From NCBI RefSeq assembly GCF_056712565.1, contig NZ_CM160072.1: a DNA stretch of 64,000 nucleotides; one strand, written 5' to 3'. The position numbers and the translations under genes were made by a program. How positions within the stretch are numbered: position 1 is the stretch's first letter; each line of letters begins with the position of its first letter. This document shows positions 38,239 to 44,033 of the stretch, piece by piece. The notes below the pieces were generated by a model. It saw nothing but the letters and a program-made list of their open reading frames with translations, did no database searches and was not told the DNA's origin.

Positions 38239-38910
38239 TCAGGCAATATTCAAATATTTATGTGTCTGCATCGACAAACGCCAGTTGCGCGCAATGCAGG
38301 TATCGATACATAAACGCGTAGCATCTTCCTTCTGGCTAATTGGCTGAAGTGCAATGACTCGCGGTTTATCATCGGTCAGCGTCGCCAGCAATTCGTCCAG
38401 TGCTTCAATATCACGTACGCGTCCCACTGGATGCTTGATTTCGTTGGCTCGCTCCAGGGCTTGCGACAATACTTCATAGCCGCCGCGCATGTTCAGCTTT
38501 GGCGATACGGTAACCCAGGTATTCGGTGTGCAGCGTACCTCATGAGTACCACTGGTTTCGATCTGGCAGCTAAAACCGTTCTTTTCGAGCAGGTCAGTCA
38601 GTGGCAGCAAATCATGAATGCAAGGCTCACCACCCGTAATCACCACGTGACGCGCGGTGTATCCCTGACGGCCAATGACAGCCAGCAAATCTTCACTGCT
38701 CGCCGCCCCCCACTTATCACTCTCTTTGGTCTTCGCCAGAATGCTGAAAAGGGAGACTTCCCGATCCTCAAGCTTTTCCCAGGTGTGTTTGGTGTCGCAC
38801 CAGGCACAGCCAACCGGACATCCCTGTAAACGAATAAAAATGGCGGGGACGCCGGTAAAGTAACCCTCACCTTGCAGGGTCTGGAACATCTCGTTAATCG
38901 GGTACTGCAT
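38239..38910 (-). CDS. queE: 7-carboxy-7-deazaguanine synthase (radical SAM)
   Basis: 223-aa ORF MQYPINEMFQTLQGEGYFTGVPAIFIRLQGCPVGCAWCDTKHTW... with radical-SAM Cys motif. Confidence 0.9.
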   Translation of the reverse strand: MQYPINEMFQTLQGEGYFTGVPAIFIRLQGCPVGCAWCDTKHTWEKLEDREVSLFSILAKTKESDKWGAASSEDLLAVIGRQGYTARHVVITGGEPCIHDLLPLTDLLEKNGFSCQIETSGTHEVRCTPNTWVTVSPKLNMRGGYEVLSQALERANEIKHPVGRVRDIEALDELLATLTDDKPRVIALQPISQKEDATRLCIDTCIARNWRLSMQTHKYLNIA

Positions 38911-39082
38911 AGCATTCTCTGTGAAGTGGATAATTGTTAATTATTGCAGATCCTGCCACAACAATCATGTCTTATTAACATTCTGTTACAGGCAGGTTTG
39001 ATGCAAAAATTGGCTCAGATCATTAAGAATAAAATGAAGCGGCGTATTATGTTTTCAAGGATTAAATGAAAGGGATTTAAAC

Positions 39083-39691
39083 ATGTTTAGAATATTCATC
39101 GCGTTTATATTTATTTTCAATTTATCAGGTTGCGGTTATAACGATATTCAAACCTATGATGAACAGGTTAATGCCTCCTGGTCAGAAGTATTAAATCAAT
39201 ATCAACGTCGCACCGATCTTATTCCTAATCTTGTCGCTAGTATTAAAGGTTACTCCAGCCATGAACAAGAGGTACTAGAAGCCGTAACATTGGCACGTAG
39301 TCAGGCTAATCGCGCCAGTAGCGATCTTCAGAAAACTCCGGGAGATGAACAAAAATTACAAGCCTGGCAACAGGCGCAGGCGCAGGCGCAGGTGACTCGC
39401 ACTCTCGGGCAGTTAACGATTATTAGTGAGCGTTACCCTCAGTTAAAGGCTCAAGAGCTCTATCAAAACTTAATGGTACAGCTCGAAGGAAGTGAAAATA
39501 GAATTGCCGTTGCGCGAGGAAGATATATTAAAGCCATTGAACAATATAATGTCACTATCCGCAAATTCCCCGCTGTATTAACCGCAAAGGTCATGGATTA
39601 CACACCAAAGAAAAATTATTTGCCGGATGATGTCACCGCAGTAAGTAAAGCCCCAACAATAGATTTTAGCCAGAATGCTAATGCTCATTAA
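39083..39691 (+). CDS. lemA: LemA-family protein
   Basis: 202-aa ORF with N-terminal lipoprotein-type signal/anchor (FIFIFNLSGCGYN) and LemA-like helical domain; AT-rich codon usage. Confidence 0.8.
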   Translation: MFRIFIAFIFIFNLSGCGYNDIQTYDEQVNASWSEVLNQYQRRTDLIPNLVASIKGYSSHEQEVLEAVTLARSQANRASSDLQKTPGDEQKLQAWQQAQAQAQVTRTLGQLTIISERYPQLKAQELYQNLMVQLEGSENRIAVARGRYIKAIEQYNVTIRKFPAVLTAKVMDYTPKKNYLPDDVTAVSKAPTIDFSQNANAH

Positions 39692-39704
39692 GCGGGGACG
39701 TTCT

Positions 39705-40598
39705 ATGCGAAATTTTATCTTCCTTATGGCTTTCTTCTGTTCATCTGTGTTTGCTACACAAATTCCAGTACCTGAATCACCCAGGTATGTGAATGACTTA
39801 ACCGGCACATTAACAAACAGCGAAGTAAACACCCTGACCAACCAGATTAAAGCCCTGACGCAAAAAAACCACGCACAGTTGGTCGTGTTAGTGGTTGATA
39901 CAACAGGCGATGAAACCATTGAGCAGTACGCAACGCGGGTATTCGATAGCTGGAAACCGGGTGATAAAGACCGTGATGATGGCGTTCTACTGTTAGTCGC
40001 CTGGCAGGATCATACCGTGCGTATTGAAATCGGTTACGGGCTGGAAGGTATTATTACGGATGCACAGTCCGGGAAAATTATTCGCAACAGTATTATTCCG
40101 GCATTTAAAAAAGGCGACCTGGCTGGTGGTTTACAAAAGGGGATCAACGATATTGAAAGTCGCCTGACGGGGAATAATTCAGCAACGATAACACCGACCG
40201 ATCACCCTTTGTCCTTTAGCGGTTGGTGGGCTTTATTAGTCTGGGCGATAATACTGACGTTTATTTCTGCCAGAGGATATATCAAAACGTTGGGAGTAAT
40301 TTGCTTCGCAGCCATTGTACTGGCCTTTGTTTTACCTATAGCAGGTTTCAGCGGAAGCTGGGGAGTACTCACAACATTACTCTGCTTCGCCACACCGTTT
40401 CTGGCAGTTGCCATCGCTTTTACCCCCTTCGGCAAAAAGGTTCGGGATTCGATGCGTGATGCCAACCAGCCATCACGCCATACAAGAAGCAATTCTTCCT
40501 CCCACTATTCATCATCGTCATCCTCTTCATTCGACAATGACAATTTTAGCGGTGGTGGCGGTTCATCTGGTGGCGGTGGCGCTTCCGGGCGCTGGTAA
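39705..40598 (+). CDS. TPM-domain (DUF477/YgcG-like) membrane protein, paralog 1, with Gly/Ser-rich C-terminal tail
   Basis: Start chosen at MRNFIFLMAFFCSSVFA (signal peptide); alternative ATGs lie at 39675 and 39681. TPM domain (LVVLVVDTTGDETIEQYATRVFDSWKPGDKDRDDGVLLLVAWQDHTVRIEIGYGLEG), 2–3 TM helices, poly-Ser linker, C-terminus GGGGSSGGGGASGRW. Confidence 0.75.
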   Translation: MRNFIFLMAFFCSSVFATQIPVPESPRYVNDLTGTLTNSEVNTLTNQIKALTQKNHAQLVVLVVDTTGDETIEQYATRVFDSWKPGDKDRDDGVLLLVAWQDHTVRIEIGYGLEGIITDAQSGKIIRNSIIPAFKKGDLAGGLQKGINDIESRLTGNNSATITPTDHPLSFSGWWALLVWAIILTFISARGYIKTLGVICFAAIVLAFVLPIAGFSGSWGVLTTLLCFATPFLAVAIAFTPFGKKVRDSMRDANQPSRHTRSNSSSHYSSSSSSSFDNDNFSGGGGSSGGGGASGRW

Positions 40599-40612
40599 CA
40601 AAAGGAATTGAT

Positions 40613-41761
40613 ATGCGTATTTTTCTCTTACTTCTGATGCTATGCGGTTTTCAGGTATTCGCTGAACGATTGCCTTCAGTGACTGACTTAACCGGGACAT
40701 TAACGACAGAAGAACAAAGTGCTTTAAATCAACAATTACAGACTCTCGAGCAGCAAAACCACTTCCAGGTGGCCGTGTTGGTTACGCCGACAACAGGGGG
40801 CAAAAACATTAAACTTGCAGCCTCGCAGAGATACGGGGTATATCACTGGAAACCCGTTGGAGAGAAGCGATATGGCGAAGGTATTTTAATTCTCGTCGTT
40901 TGGCCGGAAGGGCTGGCGTCAATGAAGATTGGACATGGACTGGAACAGATGTTGCCGCCGGAACAAGCTGCGCAAATTGTTCGTTACCATATGCAGCCAG
41001 AATTCGAAAAAAACAATCTCTTTGCTGGATTAACGGGCGGAATTGAAAGCATCGCACAGTTTACCCATATCAAAGCGAACCTTAGCCCTTTGGATGCTTT
41101 AGCCAATCATCTGTTTGCTAATCCGCAACTTTCGCTGCCATGCCTTGCCTGGACAGTGCTGATGATCGTTGCCATCATTGTCCTCTGGCGATTTACCAGC
41201 CGTCCAGGACCTGGCATATGGATGATATCAATGATTACACCTACGGTCTGGTTTTTCTGCTTTCAGGACGATGTCATCATTCGGCGGGTGTCGGTCGTTT
41301 GTTTTAGTTTATTTTTCGCAGCAATCTGCTGGCAGCGTCTCGCAGTAGTTTTTAATATGTGCCGCGTATTTCCTATGATGCTGGCCCCAAAAAATAAAAA
41401 CGCGAAAGTGAAAAAACAAAAGAAGACTCCGCAAGTTCGTGAATCAGGACGAAATTCATTGTTTGTCGTGATGCTGATAATTATTGTGGGATGGTGCCTG
41501 GTGTTCGCCAGTAATAAAGATATTGCATTCATCTCAACAATTATTGGGTTAATTGATCATTTTATCGGCCCAATAACCATTGCTGGCATCGTTCTGCTGA
41601 TCATTGTGGCCAAATTTACTGGCAATCTTAAGCTGGGGTCAGGAGAAAAAAGCAACAGGAAAACGGGGAATCGTAATGCTCATTCTCGCTCTTCGTCGAG
41701 AAATTCTTTCCGCGGTGGTGGCGGTTCTTCAGGAGGCGGCGGTTCATCCGGCCGTTGGTGA
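40613..41761 (+). CDS. TPM-domain membrane protein, paralog 2 (more divergent, extended multi-TM region), same C-terminal tail
   Basis: 382-aa ORF with ATG start and AGGA RBS; signal peptide MRIFLLLLMLCGFQVFA; TPM-like N-terminal domain; long hydrophobic and lysine-rich middle region; C-terminus RGGGGSSGGGGSSGRW. Confidence 0.75.
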   Translation: MRIFLLLLMLCGFQVFAERLPSVTDLTGTLTTEEQSALNQQLQTLEQQNHFQVAVLVTPTTGGKNIKLAASQRYGVYHWKPVGEKRYGEGILILVVWPEGLASMKIGHGLEQMLPPEQAAQIVRYHMQPEFEKNNLFAGLTGGIESIAQFTHIKANLSPLDALANHLFANPQLSLPCLAWTVLMIVAIIVLWRFTSRPGPGIWMISMITPTVWFFCFQDDVIIRRVSVVCFSLFFAAICWQRLAVVFNMCRVFPMMLAPKNKNAKVKKQKKTPQVRESGRNSLFVVMLIIIVGWCLVFASNKDIAFISTIIGLIDHFIGPITIAGIVLLIIVAKFTGNLKLGSGEKSNRKTGNRNAHSRSSSRNSFRGGGGSSGGGGSSGRW

Positions 41762-41766
41762 TCGTA

Positions 41767-42660
41767 ATGCGCTTAATCTTTATTCTATTCACTTTGTGGT
41801 GCCTTCCTGGGCTTGCCCAGCAAATTGCTGTGCCGGAACTGCGCCAACAGGTGACCGATATTACTGGTACGTTAAGCACTTCTGAACAACAATCACTGAC
41901 ACAGCAACTGCAGGATATTACACATAAAACACGGGCGCAGGTCGCTGTATTAGTAGTGCCGTCCACCGGAGACGATTCCATTGAACAATATGCTACAAGG
42001 GTTTTTGATAGCTGGAAACTGGGAGATAAGCAGAGAAACGATGGTATTTTACTTCTGGTTGCCTGGGAGGATCATGCTGTTCGTATTGAGGTTGGCTACG
42101 GGCTGGAAGGGGTGGTTACCGACCTGCAAGCGGCGAAGATTATCAGGGATATATTGATCCCTGCCTTCAAAAGTGATGACCTGATGGGTGGATTAACACT
42201 GGCAAGCGAAAATATCGGCGCGCTTCTGTTGAATGGTGAATTACCGGAAGACAGGGGGGATTATTACAGTATCAATCCCCCTATTCCATTATCGCTTGCT
42301 GTAATTATATTGCTGGCGGTACTTTCATATTTTATTGTTTTTACCGATCCGTCGAATTTACCCTGGATCACTCTCACTGGCGCCATTTACGGGATGGTAT
42401 TCCTCTATGTTGCCGAGCCAGGACCATGGACCAATTTAATCGTTGCCTGCGGTATGTTAACGCCTTTTGCGATCGTACCACTGGTTGTTTTTTGGCTTAT
42501 CGTCAATAAAAAGCTACGCGCCAAATACAAAAAACTCAGTAAAGAAAGAGCTTCAAGAAAAGGTTCTTCTTCATCCTCTTCCGGTGGAGGCTCAAGTGGC
42601 GGCGGATTTAGCGGCGGGGGCGGTTCTTCTGGCGGTGGCGGCGCGTCCGGTCGCTGGTAA
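41767..42660 (+). CDS. ygcG: TPM-domain membrane protein, paralog 3 (probable ygcG ortholog), same C-terminal tail
   Basis: Start at MRLIFILFTLWCLPGLA (the track ORF begins 4 codons earlier at a TTG). TPM domain about 70% identical to paralog 1 by eye (VAVLVVPSTGDDSIEQYATRVFDSWKLGDKQRNDGILLLVAWEDHAVRIEVGYGLEG); C-terminus GGGSSGGGFSGGGGSSGGGGASGRW. Adjacent to eno as ygcG is in K-12 (from memory). Confidence 0.75.
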   Translation: MRLIFILFTLWCLPGLAQQIAVPELRQQVTDITGTLSTSEQQSLTQQLQDITHKTRAQVAVLVVPSTGDDSIEQYATRVFDSWKLGDKQRNDGILLLVAWEDHAVRIEVGYGLEGVVTDLQAAKIIRDILIPAFKSDDLMGGLTLASENIGALLLNGELPEDRGDYYSINPPIPLSLAVIILLAVLSYFIVFTDPSNLPWITLTGAIYGMVFLYVAEPGPWTNLIVACGMLTPFAIVPLVVFWLIVNKKLRAKYKKLSKERASRKGSSSSSSGGGSSGGGFSGGGGSSGGGGASGRW

Positions 42661-42670
42661 CTCAACCATA

Positions 42671-42700
42671 AAAAACGCCAGCCCGAAGGCTGGCATTTTT
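42671..42700. terminator. Bidirectional rho-independent terminator between the TPM operon and eno
   Basis: GC hairpin gccagcc-cgaa-ggctggc flanked by an A-run upstream and a T-run downstream on the + strand. Coordinates approximate. Confidence 0.6.
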
Positions 42701-42719
42701 AAATCAGATAAAGTCAGAC

Positions 42720-44033
<1,314 letters not shown>

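Follow-up and report, generated by a model that had tools for sequence, protein, structure and literature searches.

The glycine-rich C-terminal tail of three TPM-domain paralogs in an Escherichia coli lemA operon is a family-wide signature that may cap the TPM domain

The window, a 64,000-nucleotide stretch of contig NZ_CM160072.1, carries three tandem genes for TPM-domain proteins, here called paralogs A, B and C, which all end in nearly the same glycine-rich peptide. The question raised by this locus is why proteins that have diverged over most of their length have kept this tail, which an earlier note on the same DNA had taken for a docking or sorting signal behind a flexible Gly/Ser linker. 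The stretch 38900-42720 is 100% identical to E. coli Z0117EC0054 (NZ_CP098206). The genes and their tails are as follows.

39705..40598, plus strand: paralog A, 297 aa, 'TPM domain-containing protein' (RefSeq WP_001243495.1)
40613..41761, plus strand: paralog B, 382 aa, 'TPM domain-containing protein' (RefSeq), Pfam PF04536 at E=1.5e-21
41758..42660, plus strand: paralog C, 'TPM domain-containing protein' (RefSeq WP_001331608.1)
40545..40595, plus strand: tail of A, 17 codons, FSGGGGSSGGGGASGRW, stop codon at 40596-40598
41708..41758, plus strand: tail of B, FRGGGGSSGGGGSSGRW, stop codon directly after
42607..42657, plus strand: tail of C, FSGGGGSSGGGGASGRW, stop codon directly after

The motif is 17 residues long with an aromatic residue at position -17 (Phe in A, B and C; positions are counted back from the C-terminus), and the ending shared by the paralogs is GGGGSSGGGG[A/S]SGRW. 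The last 15 codons lie at 40551-40595 in A (GGGGSSGGGGASGRW), at 41714-41758 in B (with the end SSGRW) and at 42613-42657 in C (with the end ASGRW). The three DNA strings and peptides quoted in the earlier note were all found exactly in the window, and its description of near-identical peptides written with different codons holds: in pairwise comparison the 45-nt tails show 8-10 differences, 8-9 of them at third codon positions, and 0-1 amino-acid changes. The overall identity among the paralogs is 34-46% (38-59% for the TPM domains and 23-26% for the transmembrane and linker region at the protein level), and over the last 15 codons it is 93-100%. The codon-level check that the note had proposed gave, by the Nei-Gojobori method, proportions of synonymous differences (pS) of 0.57-0.64, of nonsynonymous differences (pN) of 0-0.032 and a dN/dS ratio of 0-0.03. 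Since the synonymous sites are near saturation, the duplication is old, and the tail has been kept by strong purifying selection without recent gene conversion, as had been suggested. No further open reading frame (ORF) with this ending was found in the 64-kb window.

In all three proteins a Sec-type signal peptide is followed by the TPM domain, then by hydrophobic helices, a stretch rich in Lys and Arg, a low-complexity one rich in Ser and Gly, and finally the tail. Between the domain and the tail there are three hydrophobic helices in A (residues 171-187, 196-212 and 221-237), about five in B and three in C. Paralog A matches PF04536 with E=2.6e-41 over residues 39-161 of the longer ORF; a second Pfam family, PF25184, stands in precomputed annotations of some of its Escherichia orthologs and was not reported with the Pfam release used. 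Paralog C is the closest of the three to YgcG of E. coli K-12 (56% identical to a K-12-like YgcG), and a phmmer comparison with TPM domains in PDB matched it to 7TBR (1.1e-22) and 5ANP (1e-19). A and C have the conserved D31 and the motif R106-I-E108-V-G-Y-G; both are degenerate in B, in which RIEVGYG is replaced by MKIGHG and the hydrophobic segments come with a Lys-rich loop. Having the signal peptide, the helices behind the domain and a Gly-rich end in Trp, A, B and C are YgcG-type ('long-form') TPM-domain membrane proteins encoded in a lemA operon, and the family to which the three genes belong as ordinary members is known but uncharacterised.

A search beyond this genome, also proposed in the earlier note, found the tail at the exact C-terminus of orthologs and distant homologs. 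An exhaustive phmmer search with C gave 22,463 proteins at E<=0.001. Representatives of 50%-identity clusters were tallied for the best 150 of these matches: 129 of the 150 end in Trp, and among the 144 that were newly retrieved, 124 end in Trp and have the same long-form architecture (signal peptide, helices, Gly-rich W end). Those without the Trp are mostly truncated or frameshifted fragments, and two more have the motif followed by 1-2 extra residues. The logo of the 129 W-ending representatives gives the family form [FWY]xGGGGx[SF]GGGG[AS]SGxW-COOH, with 99-100% Gly at -13, -12, -8, -7 and -6, 98% Ser at -4 and Ala or Ser (86 and 13%) at -5. At -2, Ser (38%), Arg (33%), Gly (13%) and Lys (4%) occur. 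The Arg-Trp end is therefore less strict than had been claimed: Trp alone is fixed, and a strictly kept Arg is confined to enteric and some other lineages (94 of the best 120 matches to A, which are enteric, end in GRW, the remainder being mostly truncated or frameshifted fragments). Nor are the Gly runs merely a flexible linker, as they are invariant in length and position.

The same picture was obtained when the motif was searched first, using a degenerate DNA pattern for GGGGxxGGGGASGxW followed by a stop codon in one genome per species. At least 120 loci were found in many phyla, namely alpha-, beta-, gamma- and delta-proteobacteria, Bacteroidota, Chlorobi, Lentisphaeria, Planctomycetota, Nitrospirae, Acidobacteria, Cloacimonadota, Elusimicrobia, Spirochaetes and Gastranaerophilales. 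Among the loci listed, every full-length ORF terminated by the motif carries a TPM domain, and the single apparent non-TPM case comes from a TPM gene with a frameshift. When only the tail (a 40-aa consensus) served as a protein query, nothing usable was found (7 weak matches among 367 candidates). In a full-length alignment of 103 sequences, invariant columns are few and lie in the tail and, in small number, in the TPM core; the membrane region is unconserved, and the adjacent low-complexity linker, unlike the tail, is not conserved either. The tail is a family-wide C-terminal signature of YgcG/TPM-domain proteins and not a peculiarity of the three paralogs.

These data bear on the alternative that the tails are low-complexity sequence, alike by composition or by gene conversion among tandem paralogs. 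They are indeed Gly/Ser-rich and repetitive, and in one E. albertii allele a GGGGSS unit is missing, as expected from replication slippage. Such a view is, nevertheless, refuted by the differing third positions (8-9 of 15 sites between paralogs), the Nei-Gojobori values and the positional logo: conservation in the 129 W-terminated representatives is position-specific, extends across phyla at <40% overall identity and stops at the adjacent linker. We therefore give this alternative practically no credence.

Two natural variants of these proteins were met in these searches. In E. albertii, homologs of A have a single-unit tail (...FDNDHFSGGGASGRW), in which one GGGGSS unit is missing with the frame kept, as if one Gly run had slipped on the other; this allele occurs in several clusters, one of them from a 644-kb contig. 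In a Klebsiella sp. (L128:5905-6690), a B-like paralog of 261 aa has its TPM domain almost wholly deleted and the end FRGGGGSSGGGGASGRW kept. It still has the signal peptide, the membrane segments and the Lys-rich loop, adjoins an intact A-like protein, and behind it comes a 130-aa membrane protein similar to a 120-aa ORF of E. coli S51 (L002:5741-6103).

The part of the protein to which the tail is coupled was indicated by co-variation. We aligned 207 long-form proteins (effective number, Neff, 200) to the family hidden Markov model (HMM) and scored 34,249 column pairs at least 6 apart by mutual information with average product correction. The top pair of all joins position -10 of the tail with HMM column 82, occupied in A and C by Phe80 of the RVF..W helix; it scored 0.635, the next pair 0.349. 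A tail Ser goes with Phe in 71 proteins and a tail Phe with Ala, Gly or Val in 120, Phe is never combined with Phe, and the intermediate tail Gly is paired with Leu or Met. By parsimony on a neighbour-joining tree built without these two columns, 26 changes were inferred at tail -10 and 21 at column 82; 19 fall on the same branch and all of these are compensatory, compared with 1.3 expected by chance and a maximum of 6 in 2000 trials. The candidate explanation that this pattern reflects two ancient subfamilies was rejected. Proteins of both types occur intermingled even at 60-70% identity: for 22 of 206 sequences the nearest neighbour belongs to the other type, and in 151 cross-type pairs the identity is 60% or more, so that the pattern is not due to a single old split.

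A second pair, ranked 15 of the 34,249, couples position -2 of the tail to column 106, where residue 104 stands as the x of D-R-x-h-R-I-E-V-G-Y-G. Arg or Lys in the tail is found with Thr, Ala, Ser or Glu in 52 of 59 cases and Ser, Gly or Asp with Lys or Arg in 126 of 148. Here 40 and 49 changes were inferred, of which 20 are co-located, all compensatory, against 4.8 expected by chance. Among enteric homologs, the sole proteins ending in GNW and GSW have Arg and Lys, respectively, at column 106. The codons in question in A and C are listed below.

39942..39944, plus strand: Phe80 of A, partner of tail -10 Ser288 (40566-40568)
40014..40016, plus strand: Thr104 of A, at the start of the RIEIGYG strand, partner of tail -2 Arg296 (40590-40592)
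42004..42006, plus strand: Phe80 of C, partner of tail Ser288 (42628-42630)
42076..42078, plus strand: Ala104 of C, partner of tail Arg296 (42652-42654)

Judged by their residues, the E. coli proteins fit both rules, with the pairs F80/S288 and T104/R296 in A and F80/S288 and A104/R296 in C; B has L101/R381, but V76/S373. On the same comparisons, Arg is one of several residues taken at -2 in step with TPM residue 104.

The structure predicted for C by AlphaFold2 from the 103-sequence alignment points in the same direction. The mean predicted local distance difference test score (pLDDT) of the model is 84; residues 21-150 reach 92-98 and the linker 261-281 is disordered (<50). Residues 288-296 of the tail form a beta-strand with a pLDDT of ~95, which is also the approximate mean of the last seven residues. 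The other strands of the model are 29-31, 58-64, 93-99 and 104-110, all in the TPM domain, and a two-residue partner at 284-285. The TPM part has the expected four-stranded sheet flanked by helices, and Foldseek matched it to 5ANP (template modelling score 0.89, root-mean-square deviation 1.5 Å) and to 7TBR, 2KW7 and 3PVH. Foldseek also matched the domain to a subunit of the mycobacterial respiratory CIII2CIV2 supercomplex (6ADQ J, 8OVC V and 8HCR J; E 6e-3 to 1e-2), another TPM-fold protein on a membrane complex, like Psb32 on photosystem II. Since there are no other strands of comparable length outside the domain, the tail strand of the model must pair with the TPM sheet, as deduced from the DSSP string. 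Phe80 is near the C-terminal end of the helix preceding the 93-99/104-110 hairpin, and the partners of the two tail residues thus lie about 8 residues apart, at the two ends of strand 104-112; as these tail residues (296 and 288) are 8 apart, one antiparallel register, putatively with 296 opposite 104, fits both pairs.

We consider it rather probable that the tail is a strand capping the TPM domain, its own or that of a sibling, and not a signal for docking on a partner or for sorting. According to this proposal, the tail would fold back as a short beta-hairpin plus strand and would pair antiparallel with the TPM edge strand R-I-E-V-G-Y-G (residues 104-110). Arg296 would come to lie beside residue 104 and Ser288 over a pocket next to the helix residue Phe80, and the terminal Trp would serve as an anchor. 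The Gly runs would be fixed by packing across the large conserved side chains of the edge strand instead of being a floppy spacer, and the variable Ser/Gly-rich stretch would be the tether leading back from the membrane anchor. Capping might stabilise or gate the conserved face of the TPM domain, or strap subunits together. The three old paralogs would then have kept the same tail because they have kept the same type of docking surface ('Phe80 / neutral-104').

The tail may dock in cis or in trans onto a sibling subunit or paralog. Docking in trans between subunits or paralogs is probably possible too, because the E. coli tails are interchangeable in type, the docking strand of B is degenerate and the Klebsiella paralog without a TPM domain keeps the tail. 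The docking part of the original idea therefore stands in spirit, while the evidence (residues 80 and 104, and the AlphaFold2 strand) directs it to a TPM domain of the tail's own protein type.

A different receptor is conceivable in the neighbourhood of the motif genes. The partner survey recommended in the earlier note brought up two recurrent neighbours, LemA and a short TPM-like protein. LemA is encoded within 3 kb of the motif gene at 28 of 30 loci with both flanks and at 64 of 70 with upstream sequence. The short TPM-like protein, the third gene of the canonical module, is encoded at 100 of the 120 motif loci listed (examples are L004:5033-5689, L006:3345-4004 and L032). It ends in NELPDxP (NELPDxPxxL in the examples) and is either soluble (~145-185 aa) or interrupted within its domain by a two-helix membrane hairpin (~205-230 aa). 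Since it has no signal peptide, it is expected to be cytoplasmic, and AlphaFold2 makes its own C-terminus a short strand (163-165).

The tail could accordingly be a cytoplasmic docking peptide, in which a Gly/Ser tether shows the G-x-W tip to a cytoplasmic partner, like the tails of SSB and FtsZ. Hydrophobicity and the positive-inside rule place the tail in the cytoplasm, a possible receptor is the short TPM protein next door, and the tail is kept in the Klebsiella paralog without the TPM domain and in K-12 YgcG without a LemA neighbour. No comparable co-variation was, however, found between the tail and the short TPM partner, including its equivalent strand and helix positions, and the values for LemA columns were at background and clade-driven. 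In an AlphaFold2 fusion of the short partner with the tail (40 paired sequences) the tail was disordered (pLDDT 44-48). In addition, the short gene is absent from the E. coli locus and from the 64-kb window, in which the tail is kept all the same, the strongest co-variation in the whole protein is that of the tail with its own TPM domain, and an invariant length of the Gly runs would not be expected for a mere tether. Docking in trans on the short cytoplasmic neighbour was rejected as the main explanation on account of the disorder and the missing co-variation, and the docking-peptide interpretation as a whole appears unlikely to us.

Gly-rich tracts are known to impede AAA+ unfoldases, and the tail could also be an element of degradation control, whose terminal nonpolar residue engages a membrane AAA+ protease (e.g. 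FtsH) and whose slippery Gly tracts tune turnover. The predicted cytoplasmic location and a free C-terminal tail of >20 aa would suit this by inference, and ftsH adjoins one distant locus, which is probably a coincidence. Such a function leaves unexplained why the tail co-varies with TPM residues 80 and 104 and why the motif is spaced so exactly, and no protease gene is consistently linked in the loci examined, so that this is very improbable. Still less can be said for a sorting or secretion signal for dedicated machinery (sortase-, exosortase- or rhombosortase-like, T9SS or T1SS), to which the extreme C-terminal position and the strong conservation had pointed and which we regard as barely credible. 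The known types consist of a motif, a hydrophobic helix and a basic cluster, or of a folded C-terminal domain (CTD), whereas here the motif ends the protein with no helix or basic cluster behind it. The protein is already membrane-anchored and has an N-terminal signal peptide, and the loci examined show no recurrent gene for a sorting enzyme; among the neighbours tested for, the recurrent ones are LemA and the short TPM protein.

Several points weigh against capping. The most serious concerns topology: by the standard rules, the TPM domain is predicted to be periplasmic and the tail cytoplasmic. The former is expected because A, B and C have cleavable Sec-type signal peptides, as for TLP18.3/Psb32, and the latter because of the three, about five and three hydrophobic segments and the Lys/Arg clusters after the last helix, where up to nine positive charges are found in all three proteins. 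The TPM homolog MOLO-1 is also located on the exoplasmic side. In a crude scan of the family, the helix count was odd in 77%, with one or three segments in 153 of 207 proteins; most of those that seemed to have two are three-helix proteins whose middle helix is weak and rich in Gly/Ala. The tail and the domain should thus share a compartment according to the co-variation and AlphaFold2, and lie on opposite sides according to the signal peptide, the odd number of helices and the positive-inside rule. A second crossing of the membrane by the Ser/Gly linker was ruled out as a general answer: the linkers of B and K-12 YgcG are charged throughout and poorly suited for it, although 14-15 consecutive uncharged residues in A and C would fit. 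Furthermore, AlphaFold2 and co-variation are not independent, as the same kind of alignment is behind both, co-variation is coupling and no proof of contact, and the pairing of the tail with the sheet was read from the DSSP string and not from model coordinates. The domain does not need the tail in order to fold, since structures of isolated TPM domains lacking it exist, and the perfect tail of the TPM-less Klebsiella paralog means that its function is not purely in cis.

The topology conflict is softer outside the enterics. In many proteobacterial members the last helix is followed by hardly any positive charges or by none, and the middle helix is only marginally hydrophobic; members with one helix often show an Arg cluster and, behind it, another weak segment rich in Gly/Ala. 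For A, B and C the conflict stands. A tentative and rather doubtful extension of the capping proposal is that the TPM domain is discontinuous and receives its last strand from the extreme C-terminus, beyond an anchor that looks like an odd number of spans, which, if the contact exists in the mature protein, would call for an unconventional topology or for trans or conditional docking. In the former case, a hydrophobic helix would not span the membrane, a positive segment would be periplasmic, or the Gly/Ser segment would return across or through the membrane domain. In the latter, a tail-on/tail-off switch would link the two faces of the inner membrane in a LemA/TPM envelope-stress module.

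The three genes lie between queE and the convergent eno and pyrG, in a group of four co-oriented genes (lemA, A, B and C) framed by the following features.

39083..39691, plus strand: lemA, first gene of the cluster, 'LemA family protein' in the RefSeq annotation of the identical locus
42677..42694, plus strand: terminator-like GC hairpin with a T run, after C and facing eno

The lemA product matched a LemA HMM built in this analysis with E=4.5e-93, and with the adjoining TPM gene it belongs to the LemA family; the NCBIfam equivalog model MamQ gave it 91.8, below the cutoff of 250. Its translated N-terminus is MFRIFIAFIFIFNLSGC, with the lipobox L-S-G-C, and the protein is predicted to be a lipoprotein (39083-39140) with Gly at +2, likewise in Rhodocyclaceae and Pelistega. 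A Bacteroidota LemA (L004) has a long N-terminal extension instead of the lipoprotein start. The annotated GTG start of C (41758) lies within GTGA and overlaps the stop codon TGA of B (41759-41761) by 4 nt, which suggests translational coupling; an in-frame ATG follows at 41767, 9 nt downstream of the GTG, and the true start of C is uncertain.

The interval between queE and eno is polymorphic among complete E. coli genomes. About 1102 of 5426 match most of the form with lemA and three TPM genes (match over at least 80% of the query 38900-42720). Other genomes have lemA and the 120-aa membrane ORF together with a single TPM gene, which in S51 is annotated as a pseudogene, and most E. coli genomes among the matches listed, including K-12, have yqcG and ygcG. 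The 46-aa yqcG of K-12 (L003:2650-2790) occupies the position held by lemA (39083-39691) in the window strain. S51 (L002:1630-3000) and K-12 (L003:1107-1500) have an annotated CRISPR array between ygcE and queE; the strain identical to the window has none annotated, and its gap between the two genes is ~470 bp.

According to the literature, the YgcG family has no known function and no single function can be attributed to the TPM domain. Phosphatase or nucleotidase activity or metal binding have been reported for some members. In K-12, sigma-S RNA polymerase binds the region between queE and ygcG, and the small protein encoded by yqcG is linked to envelope stress; ygcG is dispensable, since DH10B carries a nonsense mutation in it. 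The motif string was absent from the literature searched, which also held no functional or topological study of the tail, and the exact motif, its restriction to TPM proteins, the coupling with residues 80 and 104 and the topology conflict appear to be undescribed in the searchable literature. YgcG/TPM proteins and LemA are among the most widespread bacterial envelope proteins of unknown function, and the capping proposal would turn an apparently low-complexity tail into a structural element with concrete testable residues (F80/S288 and T104/R296). It would explain the identical tails of three old paralogs by one type of docking surface in all three, and it exposes the topology conflict of YgcG-type proteins. 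If this conflict is real, it bears on the application of topology rules to Gly-rich segments, and if it dissolves, the annotation of a very large family still gains a useful rule.

A conserved C-terminal motif on an envelope protein is likewise found in the LPXTG, PEP-CTERM, GlyGly-CTERM and T9SS CTD systems; A, B and C differ from these sorting signals in having no transmembrane helix or basic tail after the motif and no cognate enzyme nearby. SSB-type tails consist of a Gly-rich low-complexity tether ending in a conserved hydrophobic C-terminal residue. In the TPM tail, by comparison, the Gly positions are invariant and the tip co-varies with the domain of the same protein and not with partners. 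Psb32/TLP18.3, which functions in the repair and assembly of photosystem II, has the same TPM fold on the exoplasmic (lumenal) side and a C-terminal helix anchor, and, unlike A, B and C, it is without the Gly-rich C-terminal extension. The NCBIfam Psb32 equivalog (NF047379) gave 34.0 bits for A and 31.1 bits for C against a cutoff of 160 and did not match B, and NCBIfam held no specific model for these proteins, only the sub-threshold Psb32 and MamQ matches. A Gly-rich C-terminal extension on non-photosynthetic homologs and on a cyanobacterial Psb32-like protein was mentioned in passing in a preprint (10.1101/2025.05.08.652833).

The closest relative is YgcG of K-12, with the same domain, the same architecture, the same site between queE and eno and an identical end, GGFSGGGGSSGGGGASGRW. 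K-12 has yqcG and this single gene where the window strain has lemA and three diverged paralogs, of which B departs from K-12 YgcG by its degenerate TPM strand and extra membrane segments. In the canonical module of other bacteria (lemA, long TPM and short TPM), LemA is also encoded immediately upstream and the long TPM protein carries the same tail; the E. coli locus differs from it in having no short TPM gene and, instead, the long form in triplicate.

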